Shown: in pieces, positions 2,244 to 29,356 of the stretch | Position numbering within the stretch: the first letter of the stretch is position 1 | How the letters are laid out: the number at the start of each line of letters is the position of its first letter | From: Horticoccus luteus | GTDB taxonomy: Bacteria; Verrucomicrobiota; Verrucomicrobiia; Opitutales; Opitutaceae | NCBI RefSeq assembly: GCF_019464535.1 | Contig: NZ_CP080507.1 | Coordinates: forward strand, 2,190,001 to 2,222,000 | Direction of reading: 5' to 3' | Length of the DNA stretch: 32,000 nucleotides | The notes under the pieces: model-generated | What the model saw: the letters and a program-made list of their open reading frames with translations, nothing else | Databases searched by the model: none | What the model was told of the DNA's origin: nothing | Made by a program: the position numbers and the translations under genes

Positions 2244-2392
2244 CGCCAACGCCTTCCCGCGTCGCGCCGCCCGCGCCGCCCGCCTCCGCCCGCGTAAATG
2301 GTAACAAATCACGAATAACGTTCCTCCGCGCACGAAGCCCGCCTCCTCTCTCGACTCGCCGCCCGCCGTCCCCCACGGTCCGGGTCCGCGCC

Positions 2393-3208
2393 ATGTATCA
2401 GAGCTTTTATGGGTTTACGGAGATGCCGTTCAACATCACTCCGGACCCCAAATTCCTCTTCCTCAGCCCCACGCACCAAGAGGCCCTGCAACACCTCAAG
2501 TTCGGCGTGCAGGAGAAAAAAGGCTTCATCGTGCTCGTCGGCGAAGTCGGTTGCGGCAAAACCACTCTCTGCCGCCGGTTCCTCAACGAGCTCGATCCCG
2601 CGCACTTCGATACCGCCCTCATCCTCAACCCCCGCGTCACCGAAACGCAGATGTTGAAGGCGATCCTCACCGAACTCGGCGAAAGCAAACTCGCCCGTTC
2701 CCAAGTCGACCTCGTCGCCCAGATCAACGGCGTGCTCCTCGACCGCATCGCGCAAGGCCGCGACATCGTCCTCATCATCGACGAAGCCCAGAACCTCCAC
2801 CCGGACGTCCTCGAGCAAATCCGCCTCCTCTCCAATCTTGAGACCGACAAACAGAAGCTCCTGCAAATCGTCCTCATGGGCCAGCCCGAGCTCAAGACGG
2901 TCCTCTCCCGCACGGAACTCCGCCAGCTCCGCCAGCGCATCCTCGTTCACTACGAGTTGAAACCGCTCACGCTGGGCGACGTACACGCCTACATCCAGCA
3001 CCGCCTCACCCTCGCCGGCACCAGTGGCCGCCCCACGTTTACCCCCTGGGCCCTGCGCGCGATCTTCCGGCACAGCGGCGGCATTCCTCGCCTCATCAAT
3101 CATCTTTGCGACAAAGCCCTCCTCGCCGCCTACGTGCGCGACTCCGACCTCGTCAACTACTGGGACGCCCGCCGCGCCATCCGCGACGTCCGCAGCCTCA
3201 CCACCTGA
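2393..3208 (+). CDS. ExeA/GspA-like AAA ATPase (PEP-CTERM-locus type secretion ATPase)
   Basis: The N-terminus MYQSFYGFTEMPFNITPDPKFLFLSPTHQEAL, Walker A GEVGCGKTT, Walker B IVLIIDEAQNL and the LVLMGQPEL motif are typical of ExeA/GspA and the TIGR03015-like subfamily. Confidence 0.85.
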   Translation: MYQSFYGFTEMPFNITPDPKFLFLSPTHQEALQHLKFGVQEKKGFIVLVGEVGCGKTTLCRRFLNELDPAHFDTALILNPRVTETQMLKAILTELGESKLARSQVDLVAQINGVLLDRIAQGRDIVLIIDEAQNLHPDVLEQIRLLSNLETDKQKLLQIVLMGQPELKTVLSRTELRQLRQRILVHYELKPLTLGDVHAYIQHRLTLAGTSGRPTFTPWALRAIFRHSGGIPRLINHLCDKALLAAYVRDSDLVNYWDARRAIRDVRSLTT

Positions 3209-3251
3209 ATCCCGCTCCTCCCCGCTTCGCGTTACTCCCTCCACGCCCCCG

Positions 3252-4157
3252 ATGAGCCTCATCAACGACGCCCTCAAAAAAGCGCAACGCCAGCGCGCCC
3301 CCGATGCCGCGGGTGGCTCCGGCGCGTCCCCGGCGGGCGGCGTCGTCGCGAAGCGCTCGCAACCCCTCGCCGCCAAGTGGATCGTCCTTCTCGCCCTCGG
3401 CGGCGTCGCCCTGATCGTCCTCGTCGCCGTGTCCGTGACTCTATTCATTTTAAGCGACACCCCCGCGCCGCGCGTCGCCGCCAACGCGCCATCCGCCGCC
3501 CATCGTCCCGCCACCCCCTCGGTCCCTTCCACGTCCGCCTCCGGCCCTTCGTCATCCGCCATCCGTCCTCCGTCATCCGTCGTCGGTCTCCAGCCCTCCG
3601 CTCTCACGCCCGCATCCCCAGACGCCGCGCAACCCACCTCCGCCGTCCCCGCGCCCAGCGAAAGCCCCGCCCCTCCTGCCGCCAGCACCCCGCGCCCCTC
3701 CGCCGAAACCGCCGCGGTCGCCTCTCCCCGGTCCGTTCCTCCCTCTTCCGCCCTCACTCCGCCTTCAACCGCCTCCCGCTCTCCGTCGTCTGCCGTCAGC
3801 CCTCCGCCCGCCACCGTCAGCGCCGCGCTTTCCGAGCCACCCGCAGTCACCGCCACCCCTTCCGCCGTCAGCCCCGCGTCCGCGACGCTCCGCCCGCCCG
3901 CTCACGACGTCCGCGACGCGCCCGCGGTGAGCTTCGCGATTCCGCATCCCGACGAACGCATCATTGCTTACGTTGATCACCTGCGGGTCACCGGCATCCG
4001 CTCCTCGGGCGCCGACAGCAAAGTGCTCATGAACGACCGCGTGTACCGTGTGGGCGACATCGTGGACCGCGACCTCCAGTTGAAACTCGTAAAAGTCGCC
4101 CCCGAGCTCCTCACCTTCGAAGACCCCCGCGGCCTGACCTACACAAAAAACTTCTAG
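3252..4157 (+). CDS. GspB-like single-pass membrane protein with long Pro/Ser/Ala-rich linker
   Basis: ORF 3024..4157 trimmed to the ATG at 3252 (MSLINDALKKAQRQR, a typical ExeA-partner N-terminus). It has a TM helix WIVLLALGGVALIVLVAVSVTLFIL, a low-complexity linker, and a C-terminal RVTGIRSSG...VLMNDRVYRVGDIV...LKLVKVAPELLTFED domain resembling GspB_C. It lies 43 nt after the exeA-like stop. Confidence 0.6.
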   Translation: MSLINDALKKAQRQRAPDAAGGSGASPAGGVVAKRSQPLAAKWIVLLALGGVALIVLVAVSVTLFILSDTPAPRVAANAPSAAHRPATPSVPSTSASGPSSSAIRPPSSVVGLQPSALTPASPDAAQPTSAVPAPSESPAPPAASTPRPSAETAAVASPRSVPPSSALTPPSTASRSPSSAVSPPPATVSAALSEPPAVTATPSAVSPASATLRPPAHDVRDAPAVSFAIPHPDERIIAYVDHLRVTGIRSSGADSKVLMNDRVYRVGDIVDRDLQLKLVKVAPELLTFEDPRGLTYTKNF

Positions 4158-4170
4158 CCCCCGGCTGAAG

Positions 4171-4768
4171 CGTTCGACTAACGAATAACGATTAACGAAT
4201 TTCGATTTACGCCCCACCCCGCCATTCGTGTCTGTTCGTGTCCATTCGTGGTTAAAACAGGAGCATTCTACAGAAGGTAACGAAGGTAAGGAAGAAGCGC
4301 TCGGCCACGTCCGTTCGACTCACGAATAACGAGTAACGAACACCGATTCACCCGTCTGCCCATCTGTGTCCATCTGTGGTTAAAGAAAATGCCTTTTCGA
4401 CCGTCGCCACAGCTCACCCCGCCATTCGTGTCTGTTCGTGTCCATTCGTGGTTAAAACAGGAGCATTCTACAGAAGGTAAAAACGGTAATGAAGAAGCGC
4501 TCGGCCACGTGCGTTCGACTCACGAATAACGAGTAACGAACACCGATTCACGCATCTGCCCCCATCCGTGTTCATCTGTGTCCATCTGTGGTTAAAAAAA
4601 CGCCTTTCCAATCCTCGCCACAGAGTAAATCCCATACCTCTCCTCGGTGGATGGATTAACGAATAACGGTTAACGAATTTCGATTTACGCTCCTCCCCAC
4701 CCATTCGTGTACGTTCGTGTTCATTCGTGGTTAAAAATACTCTCTCCGGAAATTCGCGCCTCTTCGCG
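4171..4768 (+). repeat. Composite mosaic repeat locus 1 (two 200-bp tandem units plus a partial third)
   Basis: 4215-4414 and 4415-4622 align base for base apart from one extra decamer. Modules are CATTCGTG x3 + GGTTAAAA, TACAGAAGGTAACGAAGGTAAGG..., CACGAATAACGAGTAACG..., and CATCTGTG x2 + GGTTAAA. A 52-mer at 4269-4320 is identical to 8291-8342. Confidence 0.9.
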
Positions 4769-6469: not shown

Positions 6470-7990
6470 CTACTGTCCGCCCCGTTCCCCGACCAACGCC
6501 CGCCAAGCCGCCACGTGCCGGCTAAAGGTGAATGCTTGCTCCGCCAGCGCGCGCGCCCTGCCGCCCCGCTCCGCCGCATCGTCCGGCTCTCGCGCCGCCC
6601 CCCGAATGATCTCCGCCGCGCTCGCCACGTCGCCGGCCGGCACCGCCCAGCCCAACCCGTGTTCGCGCACCAGCCGCGCGCCTTCCGCGTCGAGGTCGCC
6701 CGTGAGCAGCAACGGCCGCCCCGCCGCGAAAATATTATACATCCGGCTCGGCACCGAGATCCCCGCCATCCCGGCCCGAAACGGCACCAGCATCACGTCC
6801 GCCGCCGCCAGCCAGTCATTCAACTCCGCCGGCGGACACGGCGGCGCGAGACAAACATTCGCCGCCCCACCCAACGCCGCGTCGACCTCCGCCCGCCCCA
6901 CGCCGCCCGCGTAAATGAGAAACCGAATCGACGCATCGCCGCGCAACGCCCGGGCGAGCGCGATCACCAACGCCCCATCGTGCGTCCGCCCCAACGTGCC
7001 GCCCACGCCGACCACCGTCTTCCCCTGCAACCCCCAACGCGACGTCACCGGCGACGCCTCCTTGGCCACAGCCCGCAACCCATCGACGTCCCCCCAATTA
7101 GGAATCACCACGATCCGCCCTCCACCGCCTCCCGCCTTGCCTCGTCCTCCTTCGCTTAATCTCACTCGCCCCACCTCCGTCGCGGAAGCCGTGACGCTGT
7201 CGTCCTCCCTTCCTCTCTCGACCGCAAAACCCGCTCCCTCCCCATCCCTCATCTCGCTCTTACTCTTAATCGTGCTCGTAATCGTCCCTCCCGCCGCTCC
7301 ACCCGCCGCCAGTTTGCGCGCGATCACGTCGCGCATATCCCGCCCCAGCACGACGATCTCATCGGCCATTTTGTAGCCGCCGCTGAACCCGCGATCGAGC
7401 TGCCGCAGCAGCCATCCTGGCCGCAGCCAACCCACCGCCGCAAAAACATCCGGATACACATCGTGCACCAGCACGATCACCCGCGCCCCGCGCCTCCGCG
7501 CCGCCCACACCACCGGCCACGGCAGCAACCGCGGGCTGGTCACCACCACCACGACGTCGCCCTGACGCAGATGAGTGAACGCCGCCCGCGTATAAGCGAA
7601 AGTCGTCGTCAGCCAGTTCAGCCCGAGCAACCACGCCCGCGACTTCGGAAACGTCGTGGCCCGCACCCGTCGCACAAGCACCCCCGGCACCTCCCTCGCC
7701 GGCCTAACCCCGACCGCCCCCACCCTTCCCAATCGTTCTCGTTCTCTTTCTCCCTCGACCGAGAATCCCGTCCGATATCCCTCCGCTCGGCACTCTTCGC
7801 CCGTAGCGGACGCCTTCAGACTTTCGTCCGCCATTCGACCTCCGCGCTCTGCCATCCGTCCTCCGTCGTCCTCCATCCGCCCTCCGTCGTCCGCCGTCCG
7901 CTCCCGCGCCAACGCCGTCGCGAGCTCCGTCACGACGCGCCCCGTCGCATCGTCCGGCCGGGCAAACACATCGCAGAAGAACCAAAGCAT
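6470..7990 (-). CDS. GT4 glycosyltransferase (WcaI-like) carrying two in-frame repeat insertions
   Basis: It is homologous along its length to the in-window paralog 20649..21836 (VIPNWGDVDG vs VIPNWADVEF, PSRMYNIFAAGRPLL vs PSKTYYSMAAGSALL, RARALAEQAF vs RARALAESQF) but is 506 aa versus 395 aa. Confidence 0.8.
   Translation of the reverse strand: MLWFFCDVFARPDDATGRVVTELATALARERTADDGGRMEDDGGRMAERGGRMADESLKASATGEECRAEGYRTGFSVEGERERERLGRVGAVGVRPAREVPGVLVRRVRATTFPKSRAWLLGLNWLTTTFAYTRAAFTHLRQGDVVVVVTSPRLLPWPVVWAARRRGARVIVLVHDVYPDVFAAVGWLRPGWLLRQLDRGFSGGYKMADEIVVLGRDMRDVIARKLAAGGAAGGTITSTIKSKSEMRDGEGAGFAVERGREDDSVTASATEVGRVRLSEGGRGKAGGGGGRIVVIPNWGDVDGLRAVAKEASPVTSRWGLQGKTVVGVGGTLGRTHDGALVIALARALRGDASIRFLIYAGGVGRAEVDAALGGAANVCLAPPCPPAELNDWLAAADVMLVPFRAGMAGISVPSRMYNIFAAGRPLLLTGDLDAEGARLVREHGLGWAVPAGDVASAAEIIRGAAREPDDAAERGGRARALAEQAFTFSRHVAAWRALVGERGGQ
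7118..7310. repeat. Intragenic repeat-derived insertion 2 in GT4
   Basis: It encodes AAGGAAGGTITSTIKSKSEMRDGEGAGFAVERGREDDSVTASATEVGRVRLSEGGRGKAGGGGG between ...VIARKL and RIVVIPNWGD. The DNA contains a hexamer-like cttactcttaatcgtgctcgtaatcg and a ccgtgac motif also seen in spacers. Confidence 0.7.
7715..7905. repeat. Intragenic repeat-derived insertion 1 in GT4 (11 in-phase C-rich heptads at 7828-7904)
   Basis: The heptads read ccgccat tcgacct ccgcgct ctgccat ccgtcct ccgtcgt cctccat ccgccct ccgtcgt ccgccgt ccgctcc. On the minus strand they are translated as DDGGRME DDGGRMA ERGGRMA, a 21-bp = 7-aa period. Confidence 0.8.
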
Positions 7991-8094
7991 GTTCCAGAGA
8001 GCAGACGCCGCCCCGCGCCTGTAAACCCAATTATTTCCTCCAGCAAATCACGGAGTAGATCCAAGCACCACCCGTTCCGCCTGCCCCCCAGTCG

Positions 8095-8582
8095 CCCAAC
8101 CGCCCATCCGTGTTAATCCGTCTTCATCTGTGGTCAAAAATGCCTTTCGATCCTCTCCACAGAGTAAATCCCATTCCTCTCCTCGGTGGACGGATTAACG
8201 AATAACAGTTAACGAATTTCGAATTACGCTCCGCCCCACCCATTCGTGTCTATTCGTGTACATTCGTGGGTAAAAAAAATAAGAGTATTTTACAGAAGGT
8301 AACGAAGGTAAGGAAGAAGCGCTCGGCCACGTCCGTTCGACTAACGAATAGCGATCAACGAACACCGATTCACGCGTCTACCCCCCATCCGTGTTCATCT
8401 GTGGTCATCTGTGGTTAAAAAATGCCTTTCCGACCCTCGCCACAGAGTAAATCCCATTCCTCTCCTCGGTGGATGGATTAACGAATAACGGTTAACGAAT
8501 TTCGATTCACGTTTCTCCCCACTCATTCGTGTCCATTCGTGGTTAAAAATACTCTGCACCGGAAATTCGCGCCGCTTCGCGT
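8095..8582 (+). repeat. Composite mosaic repeat locus 2 (about 1.6 copies of a roughly 285-bp unit), same family and orientation as locus 1
   Basis: It has the same module order as 4171-4768 and shares the terminal module GGTTAAAAATACTCTnnnCCGGAAATTCGCGCCnCTTCGCG (8541-8581 vs 4729-4768). Confidence 0.9.
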
Positions 8583-8650
8583 AATTCGCAACAGGCCGTC
8601 CTTCCCTCCGCTTCCTCTGCGACGTCCTGTAAAATAGGCCTGCGCTCGGT

Positions 8651-8713
8651 CGCCTGCCGCCTGCCCTCCGCCGTCCGCCCTCCGTCGTCCGCCGTCCATC
8701 CTCCGCCCTCAGA
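8651..8713 (+). repeat. C-rich heptad tract (9 in-phase units)
   Basis: The units read cgcctgc cgcctgc cctccgc cgtccgc cctccgt cgtccgc cgtccat cctccgc cctcaga. The tract is preceded by a CTCTGCGACGTCCTGTAAAATA module at about 8608-8636. Confidence 0.8.
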
Positions 8714-8743: not shown

Positions 8744-10606
8744 TCACTCCAAATACGGCGTATACTCCGGCACGAACTCCCGCAGCAGTTGCTTCACCTG
8801 CGCCGGCTCCAACTGGTGCAGCGTCGTGCTCACCTCCAGAAACCGCGCCTCCGCCACCGAAAAATCCCCGCCATTCCCCACGAACCGCATGATCCGCGTG
8901 TGCTGCGTCGGCTGGTGACTCTCATCATGGTGCCGCAGCTCCTCGAAAAGCTTTTCGCCCGGCTTCAACCCCGTGATCTGGATCTCTATATCATCGCCCA
9001 CCTTCAACCCGCTCAACTCGATCATCTGCCGCGCCAGATCGATGATCTTCACCGGCTGACCCATGTCCAAAACGCAGATATCGCCCCCCTTGCCCTGTAC
9101 CGTCGCCTGCAGCACGAGGCCCACTGCCTCCGGGATCGTCATGAAATAACGCGTCACGTCCGGATGCGTCACCGTGATCGGACCGCCCTTGTCGATCTGA
9201 CGCCGGAAAATCGGGATCACGCTCCCTGACGACCCGAGCACGTTGCCAAACCGCACCGCCAGAAACTTCGTCGCCGGATACCGCCGCTGCACCGCGAGCA
9301 ATTGCAGCTCCGCCAACCGCTTCGTCGCACCCATCACGCTCGTCGGGTTGATCGCCTTGTCGGTCGAGATCAGCACAAACGACCGCGTCTCGTGCGCCCC
9401 GGCGAGCGACGCCAGTTCGCGCGTCCCCACCGCGTTGTTGCGCATCGCCTCCGCCGGCTGCCGTTCCATCAGGAACACATGCTTGTGCGCCGCCGCGTGA
9501 AACACCACCGCCGGCCGGTAACGCGTGAAAATATAATCCATCCGCGCGCGATCCAGGATGTCCGCCACCAAGGGCACCGCGACCGTCGCATGGCCCAGCT
9601 CGTTCAACTCCTGTTCGATCAGGAAAAGACTCCCCTCCGATTGCTCCACCATTAGCAGTTGCCGCGGCGCGAGCGCGGCGATCTGCCGGCAGATTTCACT
9701 GCCGATGCTCCCGCCCGACCCCGTCACCATCACCACCTCTCCCTGCACCAGATGACGGATCGCCTCCGCATCGAGCGCCACCGGATCGCGCCCCAGCAAA
9801 TCCTCCACCTGCACCGGCCGGATGCGGCTCGCCCGCACGCGACCCGACGCCAGTTCCGCCATCGATGGCATCGTCTCCACCTTCAACCCCGCCGCCGTCA
9901 TCGCCAGCACGACCTCGCGCACCCGCTTGGCCGTCGCCGTCGGCATCGCGATCACCGCCTTGGTGATTTCATGCTGTTGCAGATAACGCTCGACGGTCTC
10001 CGGCACGCCCACCACCCGCACGCCATGCAACGTCTTGCCATGCTTCGTCCGGTCGTCGTCGAAAAACACCACCGGCCGAAACCCTCGCGAGGGATGCGAA
10101 ATAAATTCGTTGGCCAGCGCCGCCCCCGCATCGCCCGCCCCGATGATCGCAATCCGTTCCTTCACCGCACCCGTCGTTCGGGTGGACGCAAACCGCTCCC
10201 GCGTGATCCGCGCGCTCAACCGCAATCCACACACCCCCGCGATCGCCAGCATGTAGTCCGCCAGCAAGACCCCGCGCGGGATCGTGAAGCCGTTCAACTG
10301 GAGCACGTGCGGGATTAACAACAAGACGCTTACCACCGTGAGCGCCAGCACCACGCGGGTCAGATCGGGGATGCTGAAATACGTCAGCACACTCCCCAGT
10401 TGCCGCGCCCCGATCAGGCCCACCATCTGGAGGCCCACCACGATCGCGATCCACTCGGTGCGAATCTCCTGGTGTAGCAACGGCACCGCGAAATCGAACC
10501 GCAGTTCAAACGCCAGGTAAAACGCCGCCGTCAACGTCGCCAGATAAGCGACCGCCAGCATCAACACCCGTTGATTGCGGGAAAAATTGAGATCGAGATG
10601 AGCCAT
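8744..10606 (-). CDS. Membrane-anchored polysaccharide biosynthesis protein, CapD/PglF/WbpM-like NDP-sugar 4,6-dehydratase
   Basis: It has N-terminal TM helices, two Rossmann motifs (IIGAGDAGAAL and VTGSGGSIGSE), and the strings HAAAHKHV, STDKAINPTSVMGATKR and RFGNVLGSSGSVIP typical of this family. Confidence 0.9.
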   Translation of the reverse strand: MAHLDLNFSRNQRVLMLAVAYLATLTAAFYLAFELRFDFAVPLLHQEIRTEWIAIVVGLQMVGLIGARQLGSVLTYFSIPDLTRVVLALTVVSVLLLIPHVLQLNGFTIPRGVLLADYMLAIAGVCGLRLSARITRERFASTRTTGAVKERIAIIGAGDAGAALANEFISHPSRGFRPVVFFDDDRTKHGKTLHGVRVVGVPETVERYLQQHEITKAVIAMPTATAKRVREVVLAMTAAGLKVETMPSMAELASGRVRASRIRPVQVEDLLGRDPVALDAEAIRHLVQGEVVMVTGSGGSIGSEICRQIAALAPRQLLMVEQSEGSLFLIEQELNELGHATVAVPLVADILDRARMDYIFTRYRPAVVFHAAAHKHVFLMERQPAEAMRNNAVGTRELASLAGAHETRSFVLISTDKAINPTSVMGATKRLAELQLLAVQRRYPATKFLAVRFGNVLGSSGSVIPIFRRQIDKGGPITVTHPDVTRYFMTIPEAVGLVLQATVQGKGGDICVLDMGQPVKIIDLARQMIELSGLKVGDDIEIQITGLKPGEKLFEELRHHDESHQPTQHTRIMRFVGNGGDFSVAEARFLEVSTTLHQLEPAQVKQLLREFVPEYTPYLE

Positions 10607-10659: not shown

Positions 10660-10886
10660 CGGTCATCCGCCATTCGGCCGTTCGTTTAACCACAGATGTA
10701 CACAGATTAACACGGATGGTGGACATGCACGGTTTGAATGGCTCGTTCTTGGTTTTCACTTCGTTCACTTCTGTGAGAAAACGGGATTTACCGATAACCT
10801 GAGGCAGGAAGACTTGTTGAACCACGAATGCACACAAATTTACACGAATGGGCGGAACGCGGTTATTCGATGATCGTTATTCGTTA
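10660..10886 (-). repeat. Inverted-orientation copies of the mosaic modules
   Basis: ttaaccacagatgtacacagattaacacggatgg, cttcgttcacttctgtg, aaccacgaatgcacacaaatttacacgaatgg and cggttattcgatgatcgttattcgttaacc are reverse complements of modules seen at 4215-4690. Confidence 0.75.
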
Positions 10887-10893
10887 ACCAAAC

Positions 10894-11220
10894 AACCACG
10901 GCAGAAGTGATTGTTTAAACCTGCGTCAGGATTCGTGCCCATTCGTGTTTATTCGTGGTTAAAAAATTGGCCGTTGCACCGGCTCAGAGTGTTCTTCCGT
11001 GACCTCGGGTTGGGCTCTCCGTGACCTCTGTGGCAAAGGTCGGAATGCCTGGAAGCGGAGCTTAACCACGGCAGAGGTGATTGTTTAAACCTGCGTTCGG
11101 ATTCGTGCCCATTCGTGTTTATTCGTGGTTAAAAAATTGGCCGTTGCACCGGCTCAGAGTGTTCTTCCGTGACCTCGGGATGGGCTCTCCGTGACCTCTG
11201 TGGCGAAGGTCGGAACGTCT
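10894..11220 (+). repeat. 170-bp tandem duplication (copy A 10894-11050, copy B 11064-11220)
   Basis: My hand alignment finds 7 mismatches over 157 aligned bases. Copy B contains the last roughly 22 codons and the stop of the sugar transferase gene. Copy A keeps a ghost of the same ORF end (FATEVTESPTRGHGRTL*). Confidence 0.9.
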
Positions 11221-11880: not shown

Positions 11881-11922
11881 CGATTCGATCTGCGTTATTC
11901 GTTACCCGCTATTCGGGCTTCG
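11881..11922 (-). repeat. Short inverted AT-type heptad tract (6 in-phase units NNNTTCG)
   Basis: The units read cgattcg atctgcg ttattcg ttacccg ctattcg ggcttcg, the reverse complement of the CGAATNN type. The tract overlaps the stop and 3-prime end of the four-helix-bundle gene. Confidence 0.6.
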
Positions 11923-12319
11923 CGGTACCGGGCTTCCCGTCCGTCACATGGGTCCGCTTCAAATAGCTGATATACCCATTAATCACCTGCAACGCGCGTT
12001 CAACTTTCTGCCGCCCCTGGCTGATTAAGGATTCCGAAATCAAATCCTCATCGCGGGCGGTAATCAGATGATCGAGCACCTCCGTACACGAACCGCGCGC
12101 ATAGCTGCAGAATTTCGAGTTATCGAGATAATGATACCGCCCGTAGCCCTCTGCAATATTCGCGGTGACAGAACGAGCTGCACGCAAAACCTGATCGCCT
12201 AAACGATACCGCTCTTCGTGGGGCAAGACAGGAAGTACATTGCGATAAACGAACAAACGCAGCTCCCGGCCCGCCTTCCAGCAATCGAGATCCTCAAAAC
12301 TTCGAATCGGTGTACTCAT
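11909..12319 (-). CDS. Four-helix-bundle protein (23S rRNA intervening-sequence protein family, TIGR02436-like)
   Basis: FEDLDCWKAGRELRLFVYR...LGDQVLRAARSVTANIAEGYGRYHYLDNSKFCSYARGSCTEVLDHL is the characteristic family pattern. The gene looks less GC-rich than its neighbours. Confidence 0.9.
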   Translation of the reverse strand: MSTPIRSFEDLDCWKAGRELRLFVYRNVLPVLPHEERYRLGDQVLRAARSVTANIAEGYGRYHYLDNSKFCSYARGSCTEVLDHLITARDEDLISESLISQGRQKVERALQVINGYISYLKRTHVTDGKPGTAKPE

Positions 12320-12330
12320 AGGAGGAGACG

Positions 12331-12475
12331 AACAACGCTTAACGATTAACGCTTAACAACCAACAACGATTAACCACAGCAACGAATGACGAGTAACGCC
12401 CAACGAATAACGAATAACGATTAACGATTAACGACAGCAACGATTAACGATCAACGCTTAACGAATAACGATTTC
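12331..12475 (+). repeat. AT-type heptad tract (AACGNNT units, about 20 units with some phase breaks)
   Basis: ...aacgaat aacgaat aacgatt aacgatt aacgaca... was read directly. Its last units encode the aminotransferase C-terminus (VKSLFVKR) and its stop on the minus strand. Confidence 0.85.
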
Positions 12476-14037
12476 ACCCCCGCCACCACCCGCTCCAAAT
12501 CCGCCCGCGTGAGATTCGAACCCGACGGCAGACACAGCCCGCGCGCGAACAAATCATCCGCCACCTCGCCGCCAAACGTGTCGCAGCCCGCAAACACCGG
12601 CTGCTGGTGCATCGGCTTCCACACCGGCCGGGCCTCGATGTTCTCCTTCAGCAGCGCCTCGCGCAACGCTTCGCGGTCGCACCCAAACTTCGCAGGATCG
12701 ACCGTGATGCACGTCAGCCACCGCGTGCAGCGTCCGAACGCCGCCTCCGGCATGAATTCGATGCCCGGCAGATCGGCGAACGCCGCTTGATAAAACGCGC
12801 AATTCGCCCGCCGGGCATTCACCCGATCCGCGAGCACGCGCAGTTGTCCGCGTCCGATGGCCGCGAGCACATTGCTCATGCGGTAATTGAAGCCGATTTC
12901 GGAATGTTGATAGTGCGGCGCCGGATCGCGCGCCTGCGTGGCGAGAAACCGCGCCTTGTCGATCAACGCCTTGTCCGCCGACACCAACATTCCCCCGCCC
13001 GACGTCGTGATGATCTTGTTCCCGTTGAAGGAAAAAATCCCCAGCCGCCCCACCGTCCCCGGCGCAATCGGTTCCCGCACCGCGGCCGGAGCCCCGGATA
13101 ACGAATCACGAGTAACGGATAACGATTTCCTCCCATCAGATAACGCCCCCCCCGCCGCGTGCGCCGCAGGCGTTATATGCGGCCCGTCCTCCGCCGTCCG
13201 ATGGTCGCCCTCCGTCATCAGCCGTCCGTCCTCCGTCCGCCGTCCGCCCTCCGTCATCAGCCGTCCGTCCTCCGTCCGCCGTCCGCCCTCCGTCGTCCGC
13301 CCTCCGTCGTCCGCCGCGCCTGCGTCCCCGTCCCCGGATAACGGATCACGAGTAACGGATAACGGCAATTTACGATAGTAAATTGCCCCCAACGCCTCCG
13401 CCGCATCCTCGATCAAAGGTACGCCATACTGCGCGCACAGCCCCGCGATCGCGTCGAGATCCGCGCTCTGCCCGTAAAGATGCACCAGTATCACGGCCTT
13501 GGGCAGACGCCCCTTCGCCGCGCGATCCTTCAACGCCTCCTCCAGCCGCGCCGGATCCATATTCCAGCTCGTGCGATCGCTATCGATGAACACCGGCCGC
13601 CCGCCCTCGTAAGCGATGGGATTGACGCTCGCGCTGAACGTCAGCGTCGAGACAAATACCTCGTCTCCCCGCTGCAGCCCGATCAAGCGCAACGCCAAGT
13701 GCAACGCGGCCGTTCCAGACGACAACGCCGCCGCATACATCGGCGCGCCAGCGGCCCCGAATAACGAATCACGAGTAACGGAAAACGATCCCCCCCCCGT
13801 CCGTCCTCCGCCCTCCGCCGTCCGCCCCGCGCCATCCGTCGCCTGCCCTCCGCCCTCCGCCGTCCGCCCCGCGCCAGCGGACAACGGAGCACGAATAACG
13901 TCGACAAATTCGCTCTCGAATTTGTCGACGTGCGGCCCGAGCGGCGCGATCCAGTTGGTCGCGAACGCGTCCTGGACGAGCGACAGCTCATCCGGACCCA
14001 TGTGAGGGGAAGAAAGGTGAATGCGTGGTTTGGTCAC
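12451..14037 (-). CDS. DegT/DnrJ/EryC1/StrS-family PLP-dependent sugar aminotransferase with two in-frame repeat insertions
   Basis: The N-terminus IHLSSPHMGPDELSLVQDAFATNWIAPLGPHVDKFESEF, plus SSGTAALHLAL, EDAAEALGA, the PLP-lysine motif FSFNGNKIITTSGGGMLV and YNYRMSNVLAA-like FNYRMSNVLAAIG, identify the family. At 528 aa it is longer than the roughly 370-400 aa I recall as typical. Confidence 0.85.
   Translation of the reverse strand: MTKPRIHLSSPHMGPDELSLVQDAFATNWIAPLGPHVDKFESEFVDVIRAPLSAGAGRTAEGGGQATDGAGRTAEGGGRTGGGSFSVTRDSLFGAAGAPMYAAALSSGTAALHLALRLIGLQRGDEVFVSTLTFSASVNPIAYEGGRPVFIDSDRTSWNMDPARLEEALKDRAAKGRLPKAVILVHLYGQSADLDAIAGLCAQYGVPLIEDAAEALGAIYYRKLPLSVTRDPLSGDGDAGAADDGGRTTEGGRRTEDGRLMTEGGRRTEDGRLMTEGDHRTAEDGPHITPAAHAAGGALSDGRKSLSVTRDSLSGAPAAVREPIAPGTVGRLGIFSFNGNKIITTSGGGMLVSADKALIDKARFLATQARDPAPHYQHSEIGFNYRMSNVLAAIGRGQLRVLADRVNARRANCAFYQAAFADLPGIEFMPEAAFGRCTRWLTCITVDPAKFGCDREALREALLKENIEARPVWKPMHQQPVFAGCDTFGGEVADDLFARGLCLPSGSNLTRADLERVVAGVKSLFVKR
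13092..13364. repeat. Intragenic insertion B in the aminotransferase, bounded by 33-bp direct repeats
   Basis: CCCCGGATAACGAATCACGAGTAACGGATAACG at 13092-13124 matches 13332-13364 at 32/33 positions, offset exactly 240 bp. Inside is a perfect 39-bp tandem duplication, 13206-13244 and 13245-13283. Confidence 0.9.
13756..13900. repeat. Intragenic insertion A in the aminotransferase
   Basis: ccccgaataacgaatcacgagtaacggaaaacg is followed by C-rich heptads and then ggacaacggagcacgaataacg. A 29-bp exact repeat at 13806-13834 and 13848-13876 is spaced 42 bp apart. Confidence 0.85.
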
Positions 14038-14039
14038 GG

Positions 14040-14632
14040 TAAAGAGGTGAAGCGTTATTCGGTTCGGGTTATTGGATATTCAGAAGACCAAGACGAGTGG
14101 AATTCCGGCCGATCAGCGACAAGCTTCGCCCTGCGGCTTCCGTCAGTCAGCCGCCCGCCCTCCGTGCCCCACGAATAACCGATAACGATCACCGGCACGC
14201 CCCGCCCTCCGCTGTCCGTGCCCCACGAGTAACGGATAACGAGTAACACCGCGCTGCGCGGTCGCCTCCGCCCTCAGTCGTCTGCCATCCGCCCTCCGGC
14301 ATCCGCCCTCCGCCGTCCGTGCCCCACGAGTAACGGATAACGATTAACACCGCGCTGCGCGGTCGCCTCCGCCCTCCGCTTCCTCCGCGCCCTCCTGTAA
14401 AAATGTTTTGCTCGCCCCGGTCGCCGCCTAACAACGAATAACGATTAACGGCTAACGAATAACGATTAACGAGTAACGAATAACGAAGAACGAATAACGA
14501 TTAACGATTAACGAATAACGAATAACGATTAACGGCTAACGAATAACGATTAACGCCGCGCTGCGCGCTCCGCCGTCTGCCCTCCGTCCTCCGCCATCCG
14601 CCATCCGCCGTCCGGCGTCCGCCCTCCGCGCC
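14040..14632 (+). repeat. Large compound repeat spacer; core is 28 consecutive in-phase heptads at 14437-14632
   Basis: 17 AT-type units (aataacg/attaacg/gctaacg/agtaacg, 14437-14555) run without a phase break into 11 C-rich units (ccgcgct ... ccgcgcc, 14556-14632). The tract ends at the base before the vapC stop. Upstream are roughly 101-bp higher-order repeats (14203-14275 and 14303-14376). Confidence 0.9.
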
Positions 14633-15037
14633 TCAACGGCTCCCCTCTCTCGCTGGCTGACCGATCAACTCCACCGCGTCATCCTTGATGCCTGCGTCGA
14701 ACGTCGCCAGCCGCAGCCCGTTTTCACGCGCCAGTTGCGTGAGATACGCATCCGACGTTTTTACCGCCGTCGAAGCCCAGCGTGGCAGACGCGGCGATGG
14801 CGCAACCGCAATGAATCCTCCCACGTGCTCCTTCAACAAGGATAGGGCCTCTGACGCTTGCGCCAGACTGTAGCCAAACACCTGCATCGACACCCGCAAA
14901 AACCCAAGTTCAGTATGGGCGCAGGTCCAGAGATGGGAACGCCCTGCCTGCTTGGCCCAAGTGTGAAATGCCGCGTGATGCGATGAATCGCTGTGTTCCC
15001 ACGCGAGAAGGGCATTCACATCGAGGAGGTATTTCAC
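14633..15037 (-). CDS. vapC: PIN-domain ribonuclease toxin, VapC family
   Basis: MKYLLDVNALLAWEHSDSSHHAAFHTW...TELGFLRV...SDAYLTQLARENGLRLATFD matches the VapC (TIGR00028-like) pattern. It overlaps the upstream antitoxin ORF by 4 bp. Confidence 0.85.
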   Translation of the reverse strand: MKYLLDVNALLAWEHSDSSHHAAFHTWAKQAGRSHLWTCAHTELGFLRVSMQVFGYSLAQASEALSLLKEHVGGFIAVAPSPRLPRWASTAVKTSDAYLTQLARENGLRLATFDAGIKDDAVELIGQPAREGSR

Positions 15038-15276
15038 GGGAAATCAGCGAGCGCCGCCCGGATTTCCTCTTCCGTCACCACGCGGCCGGTGCCTGCTGCG
15101 TTGTGGGGCAAACCCGAAACCGGATGCTTCCGACGAACAATTTTAGTCGCCTGCCGTTCAGTTTCACCGAGTGCCGCCTTCCGGAGGTAGGCGGAAACCG
15201 ACGACTTAGCGGCCCGGGCCTTGTCCCGAATCCGCTGTGCCGACGCGGGATCCACTTTGAAACTGATAACGGGCAT
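15034..15276 (-). CDS. vapB: Antitoxin (RHH/CopG-like, VapB-type)
   Basis: This 80-aa ORF overlaps vapC by 4 bp. The N-terminal MPVISFKVDPASAQRIRDKARAAKSSVSAYLRKAAL is a ribbon-helix-helix-like segment. Confidence 0.7.
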   Translation of the reverse strand: MPVISFKVDPASAQRIRDKARAAKSSVSAYLRKAALGETERQATKIVRRKHPVSGLPHNAAGTGRVVTEEEIRAALADFP

Positions 15277-15319
15277 GGTATTACTTTATTACCCAATGTC
15301 TCCCGACGCGTCAAGCCGC

Positions 15320-15745
15320 CCCCCGCTTCCTCCGCTACCGCCTGCAAAATTCACTTCACGAAACACCTGATCGAATAACGAATAACGATTAACGGCCCGC
15401 CCTCCGCCGTCAGTCCTCCGTCATCAGCCGTCAGACGTCCGTCATCCGCCCTCCGTCCTCCGTCATCCGCCATCCGCCGTCCGCCCTCCGCTCTCCGCCC
15501 TCCGCGCTCTCCGCGACCTCCTGTAAAATTCACTTCAGGAACGCCTGATCGAATAACGAATAACGAGTAACGGATAACGAGTAAACCGCGCTGCGCGGTC
15601 TCCGTCCTCCGCCCTCTCCGCTACCGCCTGCAAAATTTACTTCAGGAAACGCCTGATCGAATAACGAATAACGAGTAACGGATAACGATTAACGCCGCGT
15701 TGCGCGCTCCGTCCTCCGTCCTCCGTCATCCGTCGTCTGCCTTCC
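15320..15745 (+). repeat. Compound repeat spacer: three copies of a CTGCAAAATTCACTTCAGGAAACGCCTGATCGAATAACGAATAACGAnTAACGG unit alternating with C-rich heptads
   Basis: Unit copies lie at about 15325-15395, 15500-15600 and 15612-15706. 19 in-phase heptads run from 15374 to 15506. The final tract encodes the EpsI C-terminal tail and stop. Confidence 0.9.
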
Positions 15746-16450
15746 GACGTCTGGCGCGCTTCCCGCCCCCAGCCCAATCGCCCGCAGACCGCTCAGAACG
15801 CTGTCGAACGCCGGATCGCCTTTGATCTTCTCCAACGGCTGGTCGCTGGCGAGACGCACAAAATACTGCGCCGGAGGCGCAACGAACATTTGCTTAAATG
15901 CATCGCGCAACCAGCGCCACGCGGAAGGCACTTGGTTGAATCGATCGCCAAAATCGTAAAGATCGTTACCCACGAGCTGCCAATAGACCACGTACTGCAC
16001 GGTGCCGCCTGCTGCCGTGAACCGCCGAAATTCCCCGGGGCGGGTGACGCCTTCGCGATCAGCCACCGCAACGCCATGCTGAATTTCATCACACTGCCAG
16101 CCGGCCGAAGTCCAGCAGCGGTCCGGCGTATGCGAGGCCACCAGTTGCGTCGGCATTTTACCCGCATCCCAATAGGCGATATATAATGTGAAGTGATCTC
16201 CGGTTGTCGTCGTGTATTGACGAAAGAGCACGTCATCGTAACGCAGCGTCTTTTCGACGGCACCTTGCACCGCCTCTGTTTGGCCGAGAGGCACCTCCAC
16301 CGAGGTCCAACCATCCCCTCGAGTCGCAAACATTTCATCAAGACGCCTCGTCTTGCTGTCGGACGTCGCAGGCGACTGCTTCGGCAGGCACTGCACCACG
16401 ACCGCCGCGATCAGCCCCAAAGCGGTGAACAGCAGCAAAAGCTTTTTCAT
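15689..16450 (-). CDS. epsI: EpsI-family (exosortase-associated) protein
   Basis: It has an N-terminal anchor MKKLLLLFTALGLIAAVVV, followed by ...YIAYWDAGKMPTQLVASHTPDRCWTSAGWQC..., which resembles the EpsI H-x-P-x-x-C...GW core. I chose the start at 16450 because it forms an ATGA overlap with the HAD stop (16447). Confidence 0.7.
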   Translation of the reverse strand: MKKLLLLFTALGLIAAVVVQCLPKQSPATSDSKTRRLDEMFATRGDGWTSVEVPLGQTEAVQGAVEKTLRYDDVLFRQYTTTTGDHFTLYIAYWDAGKMPTQLVASHTPDRCWTSAGWQCDEIQHGVAVADREGVTRPGEFRRFTAAGGTVQYVVYWQLVGNDLYDFGDRFNQVPSAWRWLRDAFKQMFVAPPAQYFVRLASDQPLEKIKGDPAFDSVLSGLRAIGLGAGSAPDVGRQTTDDGGRRTERATRR

Positions 16451-17142: not shown

Positions 17143-17149
17143 GTGTTTC

Positions 17150-17372
17150 GATCCCGTCGTTATTGGTTATTCGGACTTGCCACCGGGAAACAGACATTCC
17201 GGCCGCGCCCATTCGTGCGCGCGGCCCATTCGTGTTACTTCGTGTGTATTCGTGGTTAAAACGCCTTGGCGCAGCGCAATCCGCACTCCGCGTTGCGGCG
17301 CGCCCGAGAAACGAATAACGCGCTCCCGATAACAGCGCGTCGCGCGCCACGAATAACGGAGCGCTTGGCGCT
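17150..17372. repeat. Repeat-containing spacer (inverted heptads, CATTCGTG block + GGTTAAAA, GC palindromes)
   Basis: cgtcgttattggttattcgg lies at 17156-17175. cccattcgtgcgcgcggcccattcgtgttacttcgtgtgtattcgtggttaaaa lies at about 17208-17261. A hairpin gagcgc-ttg-gcgctc at 17359-17373 abuts the ATP-grasp stop. Confidence 0.75.
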
Positions 17373-19498: not shown

Positions 19499-20652
19499 GA
19501 GTAGATAACTTGCTCCAGTTGTTCGGCGATGACCGTCCAAGTGTAGTCTCGCATAACCATCGTGCGTGCGGCCTCGCCCATGCGGCGGCGGTCCTCCTGA
19601 CCCAGGAGCCGAAGCATAGCAGCCGTCACTGCCTTCTTCTCCGGCGCGACCACAATCCCGCAGGTGTGGCGGGCGACTTCTCGATGTAAACCGGCGCGAT
19701 CGGACAAGATGACCGGCAATCCCGACGCCATCGCTTCAAGCAGCGCAATGCTAAGTCCCTCGTAGCGCGAGGGCATCAGAAACACATCCGCATCCCTCAA
19801 CAAATCGAGTTTTGCCGTACCGCTGACCAGGCCAAGAAAGCGGACGTGAGCTTGCAACCCGAGGCGGCGGATCAGCGTTTCAATCACTGCGACATCCCCG
19901 CCCTCCGAAGGACCGGCTAGCAGGAGCATCGCTTCCGGACAAGCGGCCACGATTTGGCCGAATGATTCTACAATGAGATCAACCGCCTTCTGTTGGATGT
20001 CTATACGCCCGAGGAATAGAAAGAGCGTGCGATCCGCTAATTCAGGATTGAGGGCACGAAATCCTCCCCGCTGAGGTAAGACCGCAAATTCATCTGCTGA
20101 AATACCATTGTTTAAAACAAGTCCGTTCTGAGAGTAGAGGGAATCGTCCAATTCCTCCTCCGCATTGAACACCACATGCTTCGCCCCCCGTAGGTTCGCG
20201 TTTTCCATTAATGCGAGATAGGCGCGCTTGGCGAGTCCACTGCTGGCGCGCAGGGAATCGCGCTTCAAACTACCATGCGCATACACGAGATACGGCTTTC
20301 CCGCTCGTCTAGCCGCTCGCGCTCCAACCCATCCTGCATATTGAAAATGTGAATGTGCAATTACGACGTCACTCCGGAGCACAAGTTGCTCGACCCGTCG
20401 ACCTAATGGCGGCGAGTAGCCCCAGCGTCTGCCTCGCTGCACAGGTTCATAGTACACTTGAATCCCGTCCAACTCTACCGGAGTGTTGATCGGCACATTG
20501 AGCGCACTCTGTTCATCCGCTTGATTTGTGCAGCATACGATTACTTCGTGCCCCAGCTTGACCAACTCCTTACCCAGAGCATGTGCGACCTGCAAAGGAC
20601 CGCCAAAACGATACGCTGGAACATAATGCGAAATGGTTTGAAGAATCTTCAT
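19480..20652 (-). CDS. GT4 glycosyltransferase
   Basis: It shows MKILQTISHYVPAYRFGGPLQVAHALGKELVKLGHEV, and in the C-terminal GT1 domain ...FLMPSRYEGLSIALLEAMASGLPVI (the E-x7-E region). Confidence 0.85.
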   Translation of the reverse strand: MKILQTISHYVPAYRFGGPLQVAHALGKELVKLGHEVIVCCTNQADEQSALNVPINTPVELDGIQVYYEPVQRGRRWGYSPPLGRRVEQLVLRSDVVIAHSHFQYAGWVGARAARRAGKPYLVYAHGSLKRDSLRASSGLAKRAYLALMENANLRGAKHVVFNAEEELDDSLYSQNGLVLNNGISADEFAVLPQRGGFRALNPELADRTLFLFLGRIDIQQKAVDLIVESFGQIVAACPEAMLLLAGPSEGGDVAVIETLIRRLGLQAHVRFLGLVSGTAKLDLLRDADVFLMPSRYEGLSIALLEAMASGLPVILSDRAGLHREVARHTCGIVVAPEKKAVTAAMLRLLGQEDRRRMGEAARTMVMRDYTWTVIAEQLEQVIYSCLTEN

Positions 20653-21836
20653 CCGCGACCAGCAAGTACCAACGGGCGGAGCGCCGCCACATACTTCGCG
20701 CTGTTGTTGCGCGAAAACTGCGATTCCGCAAGGGCCCTAGCCCGCCGACGGTATTCGGCCAGCCGTTCGGGAGCATCGAGCCACTCGATCAAAATGCGCA
20801 CAATCGCGGGCGCATCGGTCGCATCGACCCTCGCGCCACAGCCGCCGTCAGCGACAATATCGGCGACCTCGCACTCTCGCGGCACAAGCGCCAGCAGCGC
20901 CGAACCGGCCGCCATCGAGTAGTAAGTCTTGCTTGGCACCATGTAGCCGGCCATTGCGTTGTCCATCGAGACCACGGCGATATCGCCCGCGGGGAGCGTC
21001 TGCGGCAGCAAGCTCTCCGGCTGAAATGGCAGCAAACGCATATTGTGAAGCCCGCGCCTTGCAATAGCTGCCTCGACCGCCCCCCACTGGGCCCCAGCGC
21101 CGATGATGAGAAATGCAAGATCGCTTCGTTCCTTGAGCAACTCCGCCGCCTGCAGGAGCCCGTCAAGATTGTGGGTATTCCCTAAGTTACCCGAATAAAG
21201 CACAACCGTACGATTACCCCATCCAAGCGATTGCAAAAATAGGTTCTCGCTCTTGGGCAGTGGACGAACAAATTCGACATCGGCCCAGTTCGGAATCACA
21301 CAGACATTGAGCTGACCTAGCCCGTTGTCTTCGGCACGGATAGTTTCGGCCATATGATCGCCGATCGTGAAGACAAACGCGGCCCGCCGCCACACAAGTC
21401 GGTTGAATTTTCGCCAGACCCAAGTAACTGGACTGCGCGGAGAAAGCCGCCCGAGTTGCACGAGCACGCCCGGATAAAGATCGTAAACCAACACGCAATA
21501 ACATTGCCCGCGCAGTACGGCGGCAAGCCATCCCAGCACCGAAAGAAACGGCGGGTTTGAAACGAAAAAGAGCACCTGGCTCCGGTCGGACCGCATAACG
21601 ACCGCCGCTGCGCGCAAAAAATAATGCAGCCAAGAGGATGACCGCCGCAGCAAACTTCTCCTATCATAGTCCGGTGCGGAGATCACCCGCAGCGAAGGAT
21701 CCAAAGAGCGGCCGATCTCCGCCAGATGCCCCGTCACTAGCTCGGCGCCACCGACCTCGCGCGCCACATCCTCGGCAAGTTCGCGAAAAAGCGGGCCTGC
21801 TACCTGATTGAAAAAAATTACGGTAGGTCCGTTCAT
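20649..21836 (-). CDS. GT4 glycosyltransferase (WcaI-like), insertion-free paralog of 6470..7990
   Basis: Evidence is the homology listed under 6470..7990, plus ATGA overlaps at both ends. Confidence 0.8.
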   Translation of the reverse strand: MNGPTVIFFNQVAGPLFRELAEDVAREVGGAELVTGHLAEIGRSLDPSLRVISAPDYDRRSLLRRSSSWLHYFLRAAAVVMRSDRSQVLFFVSNPPFLSVLGWLAAVLRGQCYCVLVYDLYPGVLVQLGRLSPRSPVTWVWRKFNRLVWRRAAFVFTIGDHMAETIRAEDNGLGQLNVCVIPNWADVEFVRPLPKSENLFLQSLGWGNRTVVLYSGNLGNTHNLDGLLQAAELLKERSDLAFLIIGAGAQWGAVEAAIARRGLHNMRLLPFQPESLLPQTLPAGDIAVVSMDNAMAGYMVPSKTYYSMAAGSALLALVPRECEVADIVADGGCGARVDATDAPAIVRILIEWLDAPERLAEYRRRARALAESQFSRNNSAKYVAALRPLVLAGRG

Positions 21837-23643: not shown

Positions 23644-23653
23644 TATCCGATTT

Positions 23654-25560: not shown

Positions 25561-25590
25561 TATTATCATCGCTTCGAACTGGAGCACGTG

Positions 25591-28171: not shown

Positions 28172-28188
28172 GCTCCGAAAAGTGAGGA

Positions 28189-29346: not shown

Positions 29347-29356
29347 GATTACGGAC

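Follow-up and report, generated by a model that had tools for sequence, protein, structure and literature searches.

How does a tandem array of seven-nucleotide units, a length that is not a multiple of three, come to lie in frame inside the gene of a conserved sugar-pathway enzyme? The question is raised by a 32,000-nt stretch of DNA (hereafter, the window; contig NZ_CP080507.1, positions 2,190,001 to 2,222,000 of the forward strand) from Horticoccus luteus, a soil bacterium of the Opitutaceae (Verrucomicrobiota), in which a gene for a family 4 glycosyltransferase (GT4) holds eleven consecutive heptads near its 5' end. Within its repeat family, which is unusual and evolves fast, the tract is an ordinary member, and we consider it probable that it represents a translated copy of a dispersed mosaic heptad-repeat element, accommodated in a permissive loop of the enzyme. 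The features on which this reading is built are the following (AT-type arms are described with the repeat family below):

6470..7990, minus strand: GT4-family glycosyltransferase gene, an open reading frame (ORF) of 506 aa, 100% identical to RefSeq WP_220160606.1 (Horticoccus luteus)
7824..7905, minus strand: heptad tract, with 11 heptads in one register; its coding strand is G-rich and its plus strand C-rich; aa ~29-55 (TADDGGRMEDDGGRMAERGGRMADE)
7682..7906, minus strand: insertion site 1 (aa 29-103), containing the heptad tract together with a spacer and a degenerate arm of the AT type
7728..7755, minus strand: the degenerate AT-type arm inside site 1 (plus strand aatcgttctcgttctc, coding strand gagaacgagaacgatt; Tandem Repeats Finder 7733-7752, TCGTTC x3.3)
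7115..7321, minus strand: insertion site 2 (aa 224-292), a degenerate G-rich stretch with an AT-type arm (acgattacgagcacgattaagagtaagag)
20649..21836, minus strand: insertion-free, distant GT4 paralogue of 395 aa, with 29% identity to the product of 6470..7990

A heptad tract inside a GT4 glycosyltransferase

Tandem Repeats Finder resolved the tract both as a period of 7 (7827-7901, 10.7 copies, 69% matches) and as a period of 21 (7824-7901, 3.7 copies, 79% matches). On the coding strand its register is GACGGCG GACGACG GAGGGCG GATGGAG GACGACG GAGGACG GATGGCA GAGCGCG GAGGTCG AATGGCG GACGAAA, corresponding to the peptide DDGGRME DDGGRMA ERGGRMA; the translation contains DDGGRMEDDGGRMAERGGRMA. 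The proportion of matches at lag 7 was 0.65, against 0.37 +/- 0.05 in shuffled versions (none of 10,000 shuffles reached as high a value). An earlier reading made from the sequence only had described eleven in-phase heptads with this translation, and the periods, the register and the shuffle test bear it out. The units are nonetheless degenerate: neighbouring heptads are never identical and the longest exact repeat spans 11 nt, spaced 21 nt apart. Lag 21 exceeded lag 7 in this tract (0.74 vs 0.65), which we read as a local 21-nt duplication; as a general rule a 21-nt super-period was rejected, being inconsistent in the other tracts.

The host ORF is uninterrupted over its 506 aa (its translation includes ...RTADDGGRMEDDGGRMAERGGRMADE...), and the 30 residues N-terminal to the tract still align with the GT4 family. 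Its product passed the cut-off of PF13579 (Glyco_trans_4_4; 33.6 bits, cut-off 29.7) and was borderline for PF13692 (Glyco_trans_1; 26.8 bits vs 27). Since a sequence search of the PDB with the protein gave no match at E 1e-3, the fold was assigned from an AlphaFold2 model (64-sequence alignment) and Foldseek: the GT-B core was modelled confidently (mean predicted local distance difference test score, pLDDT, 82; predicted template-modelling score 0.84) and matched the solved GT4 enzymes BshA, MshA, PimB' and GlgM with E values of 1e-12 to 1e-15. The C-domain motifs (GxxGRTH, GISVPSRMYN and the acidic E..E) are kept in two alignments (G331, G334, H337, S412-R416, Y418, E436). The product thus belongs to GT4 and has the GT-B fold. 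The sequence-only reading had called it WcaI-like, and there the GT4 assignment stands while the WcaI label is loose: NCBIfam NF007640 scored 87.6 bits against a cut-off of 276 and TIGR04007 37.1 against 800, so that WcaI is simply the nearest named subfamily.

All the excess length of this protein, relative to 63 aligned homologues, falls at two places. Site 1 (residues 29-103) measures 75 aa, as compared with 22-33 aa (mode 29) in all the other sequences of the 64-sequence alignment (+46 aa), close to the earlier estimate of about 80 versus 25 residues; site 2 (residues 224-292) measures 69 aa, as compared with 7-16 aa (mode 10) in the others (+59 aa). The sequence-only reading, which had suggested that the extra residues are concentrated at two points and not spread along the protein, was right in this respect, although its first point consists of two adjacent loops (aa 31-64, from helix alpha1 to strand beta2, and aa 75-97, past beta2). 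It had also taken the paralogue at 20649..21836 as a control; this protein is indeed shorter and insertion-free, but at 29% identity it is a weaker control than the external homologues. An insertion-bearing GT4 homologue was found neither among the 63 aligned sequences nor among the best matches of an exhaustive search of 1.84 billion representative proteins (44-46% identical, insertion-free); one candidate, P0192 (501 aa), was discarded as its extra length is an N-terminal extension. The tract is known from one H. luteus sequence, to which the best homologues are ~40-46% identical.

The model places the tract in the N-terminal Rossmann-like domain, between helix alpha1 (15-36) and strand beta2 (67-72), and site 2 between a helix (217-228) and the strand with IVVIPNW (293-295), as judged by the order of its secondary-structure elements. 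Values of pLDDT below 50 occur solely at aa 43-64, 75-97 and 242-288. Together with the absence of the segment from the 63 homologues and the match of the core to BshA and MshA, this agrees with the earlier claim that the segment was added to the fold and is no ancestral domain; two of the checks which that reading had proposed, an external alignment and a structure prediction, gave the same answer. In Rossmann-type folds the helix-to-strand connections face away from the ligand-binding ends of the strands, and on the modelled order of elements both GT4 insertions are such connections, probably situated on that far face.

The coding properties of the two insertions set them apart from the gene that holds them. 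The frame in use is free of stop codons at both sites, whereas the others are not (stops per frame, frame in use first: site 1 [0,1,1]; site 2 [0,3,2]), and the GC content at third codon positions (GC3) is 0.65-0.68 in the insertions vs 0.84 in the rest of the gene, as expected of formerly non-coding DNA. Both hold degenerate arms, the one in site 1 (7728..7755) resembling the reverse complement of AACGATT/AACGAGA units, and site 2 matches by blastn an intergenic repeat at 2187-2289 (TAATCG plus a C-rich stretch).

The repeat family and its second host, a DegT aminotransferase

The repeat census covered the 32-kb window of the 4.32-Mb H. luteus genome. Period 7 alone was enriched (9 tracts, 634 bp, vs 0 for periods 4, 5 and 8-12). 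The C-rich heptad TCCGYCN, read on the plus strand, forms at least 10 tracts of uniform polarity in the first 16 kb; its threefold pattern, (TCCGYCN)x3, was matched 22 times in the window, always on the plus strand and with 0 matches expected (3534-3581, 7877-7895, 8656-8710, 13184-13317, 13790-13869, 14556-14634, 15397-15509 and 15707-15734), and Tandem Repeats Finder added a further C-rich tract at 14265-14319. By blastn, the GT4 tract is 74-84% identical to other tracts of the window (best, 13221-13306, E 9e-16). AT-type heptads (TAACGNN) gave 14 strict matches, and the arm core CACGAGTAACGGATAACG 19 matches, all on the plus strand; the arms are ~32 nt long, with an 18-nt core conserved at 0-1 mismatch. 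The C-rich arrays usually adjoin AT-type heptads, often with a short palindrome (ACCGCGCTGCGCGGT) in between. Most tracts are intergenic, and two lie in frame inside the DegT gene at 12451..14037. The sequence-only reading overlooked that the GT4 tract is one of many family copies in the window, and that the DegT gene, 5 kb away, is similarly inserted.

This second host encodes a DegT/LegC-like aminotransferase (minus strand) and aligns to PDB 1o61 in three blocks, with two insertions between them; RefSeq annotates both the GT4 and the DegT proteins as intact. Its features are:

13735..13896, minus strand: DegT insertion A (aa 48-101), a G-heptad core with arm-like flanks; pLDDT <50 at aa 52-96
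13066..13368, minus strand: DegT insertion B (aa 224-324), consisting of arm, G-heptad core, inner hairpin and arm; pLDDT <50 at aa 227-317
13898..13931, no strand: perfect hairpin with a 15-bp stem in DegT coding DNA, abutting insertion A
13364..13387, no strand: perfect hairpin with a 10-bp stem in DegT coding DNA, abutting insertion B

Relative to 1o61, insertion A amounts to ~50 aa and insertion B to 101 aa, the latter between chain residues 167 and 168, which are adjacent there, and ending 14 residues before the catalytic GNK lysine. The arms in both always read LSVTRD(S/P)LSG. In each of the four insertions of the window, two per host gene, stop codons are absent from the reading frame used, while the other frames mostly contain them, which argues that read-through is selected. 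The hairpins adjoining the DegT insertions are the two strongest stem-loops of the window and have AT-rich centres; the palindrome at 13898-13931 recurs at the same codons (VDKFESEFV) in distant orthologues (L126 2613-2640, L127 583-608). The hairpin CGACAAATTCG..CGAATTTGTCG may be a candidate player in targeted insertion. At the GT4 insertions no hairpin was seen.

The DegT orthologues, which here take the place of the strain comparison proposed in the sequence-only reading, show how variable such sites can be. Among the best 120 homologues, 93 had both anchor motifs and were counted: site B was occupied in 71 and site A in 48, none carried site A alone, and 22 were empty. Between the anchors, site B measured 7-130 aa and site A 8-79 aa. 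The inserted peptides are translated G-rich heptads (GGGRTAEG...) or C-rich heptads (PPSSALRPPSS...), AT-type heptads occur translated both ways round (LSVNGDSLSG; NNQEPITNN), and further kinds of intergenic repeat are inserted as well, one of them resembling the ACAGAAGGTAACGAAGG motif of the window. Proteins with nearly identical cores differ widely: P0111 has 73 aa between the site-B anchors and P0114 has 7 aa, with cores 96.3% identical, while P0085 and P0088 are 98.6% identical and have 91 and 130 aa there. Of the five closest orthologue pairs, two show length differences that are whole multiples of 7 aa (P0110/P0176 by 21 aa, P0073/P0082 by 14 aa).

At the DNA level, the loci of relatives L121 and L122 have G-rich heptads at both DegT sites and more arrays in the neighbouring gaps, and the empty loci L123 and L125 were without heptad tracts over 7-9 kb. 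In L124, a three-module insertion of 198 nt is present at a codon where a 96%-identical orthologue lacks it, nucleotide identity dips beside it, and the L124/L125 junctions showed no target-site duplication. The arms, direct repeats in H. luteus, are inverted at site B of L126, in the manner of terminal inverted repeats (TIRs). In-frame entry extends over unrelated genes, namely GT4, DegT, Polysacc_synt_2 (a 44-aa G-heptad insertion in L121, 7871-7918) and the termini of Bac_transf genes, with a heptad-encoded C-terminal tail in L122 (6757-6835). Heptad tracts also form N-terminal extensions of Bac_transf genes in L121 and L122.

A gene for a four-helix-bundle '23S rRNA IVS (intervening sequence) protein' (PF05635/TIGR02436, bAvd-like) stands after DegT in the window (11909-12319, minus strand). 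It follows DegT in all four doubly inserted loci and in none of the three other loci, with a heptad array lying between the two genes. Its counterparts in the relatives are:

L121 5485-5856: IVS-protein gene
L122 5719-6093: IVS-protein gene
L126 3970-4371: IVS-protein gene

Four homologues were found in 120 unrelated heptad loci (839 kb), three of them abutting an array. The association is suggestive, an adjacency and not a demonstrated link.

The other tracts and mosaics of the window stand in the following positions:

14140..14634, plus strand: intergenic mosaic in which arms (CACGAGTAACGGATAACG) and the palindrome ACCGCGCTGCGCGGT are combined with C-rich heptad arrays and an AACGAAT array of 123 bp
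15290..15760, plus strand: intergenic mosaic, a 107-bp unit x2.3 with AT-type and C-rich heptads
8640..8710, plus strand: C-rich heptad tract in intergenic DNA, immediately downstream of the Polysacc_synt_2 gene (8744..10606)
3534..3581, plus strand: heptad tract within a plus-strand gene (~3252..4157), C-rich in the sense direction and encoding part of a Pro/Ser/Ala-rich linker

Because the last of these is C-rich in the sense strand, heptad polarity follows the chromosome strand and not the direction of the gene. The product of 3252-4157 is membrane-anchored, with a long Pro/Ser/Ala-rich linker, and its gene lies downstream of an AAA_22 (ExeA-like) gene (2393..3208). A long minus-strand ORF in this area (2309..3856, 515 aa) was considered as a third host and rejected, its translation not being protein-like and having no Pfam match; it is a spurious antisense frame of the GC-rich plus-strand genes (the AAA_22 gene and that of the Pro/Ser/Ala-rich protein), of the kind that stop-poor G-rich strands yield.

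Window positions 16000-32000 are without heptad tracts (the genes there are tightly packed, GC ~58-62%), and Rfam gave 0 matches at gathering score over the whole window. The region is an exopolysaccharide-type cluster (GT4s, GT2s, Wzy_C, Polysacc_synt_2, Bac_transf, the DegT aminotransferase, ATP-grasp and a HAD hydrolase) with most genes on the minus strand, and the plus strand is C-rich throughout. A PIN-domain (VapC-like) gene with a small upstream ORF (14633-15280, minus strand) stands between the gene at the EpsI position and DegT, flanked on both sides by the heptad mosaics of 14140-14634 and 15290-15760; the syntenic loci of relatives are without this module. Other dispersed intergenic repeats occupy 4160-4760, 8090-8560, 10690-11215 and 17228-17254, and include a 200-bp unit (x1.8, 93% matches), a 170-bp unit (x1.9, 96% matches), the decamers CCATTCGTGT / CATCTGTGGT, which end in GGTTAAAA, and a GAAGGTAAC motif. 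In other species, DegT orthologues contain what look like translated relatives (LQEGTELTEIGRKEAQKAQ) of the GAAGGTAAC-type motif.

Entry, turnover and the alternatives

We reason that H. luteus and related Verrucomicrobiota carry mosaic repeats (C-rich heptads, AT-type heptads and short palindromes) which fill intergenic gaps, and that copies of these may have entered coding DNA at tolerant loops, such as the alpha1-beta2 connection in the N-terminal Rossmann-like domain of the GT4 enzyme; the stretch that precedes the strand with the IPNW motif would be a second, more decayed copy. Entry would probably have proceeded by insertion or recombination of pre-formed mosaic DNA, since the three-module, 198-nt insertion of L124, with its adjacent dip of identity, is hard to grow in situ. 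The arrays would then change quickly through slippage, duplication or recombination with other copies, and selection would retain only stop-free frames and lengths divisible by three. As the unit is 7 nt long, only such lengths, which as a rule means steps of 21 nt (7 aa), preserve the frame, and the G-rich strand, having almost no T, rarely creates stop codons. By simple arithmetic, a perfect heptad array encodes one and the same 7-aa repeat in all three frames, which helps to explain how arrays survive in ORFs. The product would be a Gly/Arg/Asp/Glu-rich loop, presumably disordered in the cell and close to neutral, tolerated by the enzyme and dispensable for its fold.

Several points weigh against this account. 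Turnover and neutrality are shown for DegT and not for the GT4 tract, for which no close orthologue or second strain exists, and translation of the tract is presumed. The DegT orthologue set is itself biased toward intact ORFs, so that frame-breaking variants would escape notice. In the GT4 protein near-invariant residues of the family are altered (SELYYPE to CDVFARP, TNPP to TSPR, a polar beta2); because several of them are replaced, its N-domain could be decaying, and 'tolerated' may overstate the health of the enzyme. Lastly, insertion at the same codon in many lineages and the conserved hairpins by DegT site A hint at a process less haphazard than chance insertion with later selection.

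This last point leads to the alternative that survives best, an active site-specific element, that is, a non-autonomous mosaic similar to MITEs (transposable elements of the miniature inverted-repeat type) or repetitive extragenic palindromic sequences, targeted to particular sequences or hairpins and perhaps mobilised by a host factor. Its composite structure (~32-nt arms with a conserved 18-nt core), the TIR-like arms at L126 site B, the presence or absence of the 198-nt module at one codon between 96%-identical orthologues (with the dip of identity beside it) and the perfect hairpins abutting both H. luteus DegT insertions, one of them recurring in L126 and L127, would all suit such an element. 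Yet no target-site duplication was seen, the elements vary in length and lack a consensus, H. luteus has direct arms where L126 has inverted ones, the window holds no transposase that we could find, the GT4 insertions are without a hairpin, and the nested pattern of occupancy (no orthologue with site A only) also fits vertical inheritance with turnover. We regard this alternative as unlikely, while acknowledging that the DegT hairpins and the association with the IVS-protein gene leave room for a targeted mechanism.

That the loop is itself selected, as a Gly/Arg/Asp/Glu-rich peptide kept for membrane or partner contact, solubility or regulation, could be argued from the open frame and from the persistence of insertions in most DegT orthologues. 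Neither sequence nor length, however, is maintained even at 98% protein identity, the same DNA is found outside coding regions, pLDDT stays below 50 and GC3 is like that of non-coding DNA, which makes a functional loop very unlikely.

A tract whose unit length is not a multiple of three, placed close to the N-terminus of a glycosyltransferase that belongs to an exopolysaccharide cluster, further calls to mind a contingency locus, in which slippage of heptads would switch the enzyme ON and OFF by frameshift, as tetranucleotide repeats do in the lipooligosaccharide (LOS) genes of Haemophilus and Neisseria; related arrays do change length fast. Such a phase-variation switch is highly improbable because the tract is degenerate (69% matches, no identical neighbours, longest exact repeat 11 nt); moreover, such arrays are also intergenic and present in a housekeeping-type aminotransferase, and two of the five closest DegT pairs differ by whole multiples of 7 aa.

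We give next to no credence to an element acting at the level of nucleic acid, by G-quadruplex or by repeated Shine-Dalgarno-like GGAGG motifs modulating transcription or translation: quadruplex motifs of the G2+ type (14, overlapping) and GGAGG motifs (4) do occur in the tract, and G4-forming G-rich heptamer repeats are documented in Xanthomonas and Nostoc (PMC4692102), but G3+ motifs number 0, G4Hunter stays below 1.5, the RNA folding z-score of site 1 is just -2.2, and arrays occur with either strand as sense. Equally negligible is an artefact or a pseudogene (a repeat misassembly, or a dead gene with an accidentally open frame), for although repeats misassemble easily and the GT4 protein departs from its family at some conserved positions, independent assemblies of other species show the same architecture, all four window insertions are in frame with the alternative frames mostly closed by stops, and the C-terminal catalytic motifs are intact.

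Returning to a translated copy of a mosaic repeat in a permissive loop, its interest lies in the fact that 7-nt repeats are expected to be excluded from coding DNA, and here two conserved enzymes of sugar pathways, at the least, have them in frame in their catalytic domains. The DegT series amounts to a natural experiment on how a disordered insertion is tolerated by an enzyme dependent on pyridoxal 5'-phosphate or of the GT-B fold, and on the speed of repeat-driven protein remodelling. On the practical side, heptad tracts lower family-model scores (DegT and GT4 fall below NCBIfam cut-offs), inflate lengths and seed spurious ORFs in GC-rich genomes. As a speculative extension, to which we attach a rather low probability, Opitutaceae-type Verrucomicrobiota may harbour undescribed, hypermutable mosaic heptad elements that settle again and again at the same codons of conserved enzymes, perhaps hairpin-guided and linked to the IVS protein, and are translated as disposable loops; if this is true, it would constitute a new route of in-frame protein-length evolution, with a turnover far faster than that of the host gene. 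The hot-spot behaviour, if targeted, would define a new kind of bacterial repeat element.

Distribution and comparison with known systems

In a scan of one genome per species, four consecutive TCCGYCN units were found at no fewer than 120 loci of many phyla. Among the matches listed, Verrucomicrobiota, Chloroflexota, Planctomycetota, Bacteroidota, Actinomycetota and others were represented, the arrays were mostly intergenic, many ending directly at a start codon, and each usually mixed two unit variants; three consecutive TAACGNN units were absent from the 120 listed C-rich-pattern loci. Long ORFs spanning heptad tracts in other phyla were mostly dismissed as spurious GC-rich frames. Two in-frame cases, L064 (an AAA+WD40 protein from a metagenome-assembled genome of the Chthonomonadaceae) and L096, are apparently real. 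In L064, a G-rich heptad run at residues ~250-275 is followed by its C-rich complement (TEDGRRRTAQGRIPDSSVLRPPSSVH), in DNA an inverted heptad pair, and the same G-then-C order is found at DegT site B in several orthologues.

Heptamers are cited as the most over-represented class of long simple sequence repeats (SSRs) in prokaryotes (Mrazek et al. 2007, via PMC4679880 and PMC4692102), and G-rich GGGNATC arrays, under-represented inside ORFs, have been characterised in Xanthomonas and Nostoc (Rehm et al. 2015, PMC4692102). As far as these repeats are described in the citing papers, the present family shares with them tandem 7-nt units with a strongly strand-asymmetric G/C content, many dispersed copies, a number of units that varies (here at the DegT sites) and a mostly intergenic position near gene ends; it differs in its degenerate TCCGYCN unit (positions 5 and 7 free, G2 runs only), in forming mosaics with a second heptad type and in lying in frame within catalytic domains.

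The TAACTGA direct repeats of Beggiatoaceae, cyanobacteria and Bacteroidetes, reported chiefly from protein ends and from positions upstream of start codons, have the reverse translation LSVISYQ (MacGregor 2015, PMC4679880). The arm unit of H. luteus (TAACGGA/TAACGAA) is one base off, its forward copies likewise carry stop codons and its reverse translations (LSVTRDSLSG, LSVISSQLSG) resemble LSVISYQ, whereas the arms here flank G/C-rich arrays, lie in internal loops and belong to another phylum.

The best-known in-frame translated repeats are the Rickettsia palindromic elements (RPE), which are MITE insertions (PMC10969869). Like them, the heptad mosaics enter unrelated metabolic genes in frame and add a peptide compatible with the fold; RPE, unlike them, are of fixed length (~150 bp) with a consensus and a conserved peptide, in contrast to the variable 7-nt arrays and very fast turnover seen here. 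SSR contingency loci in LOS and capsule glycosyltransferases, such as those of Haemophilus influenzae, depend on perfect repeats and reversible frame shifts (PMC2651432). A non-triplet unit inside a surface-polysaccharide glycosyltransferase gene is common to both, but the present tract is degenerate (69% matches), and the single genome offers no evidence of ON/OFF switching.

In the short tandemly repeated repetitive (STRR) sequences of cyanobacteria, several heptamer units coexist per genome as dispersed tandem arrays, in AT-rich genomes and, as described, between genes; to our knowledge, in-frame insertions in enzymes have not been reported for them. The sharing of one genome by distinct heptamer types is a feature that H. 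luteus has in common with these STRR heptanucleotide repeats, which are mentioned for Calothrix PCC 7601 in PMC4692102. Our limited literature search found no description of mosaic heptads in frame in enzymes: tandem heptamers and repeats inserted in frame have each been described before, and it is their combination in H. luteus that is new.

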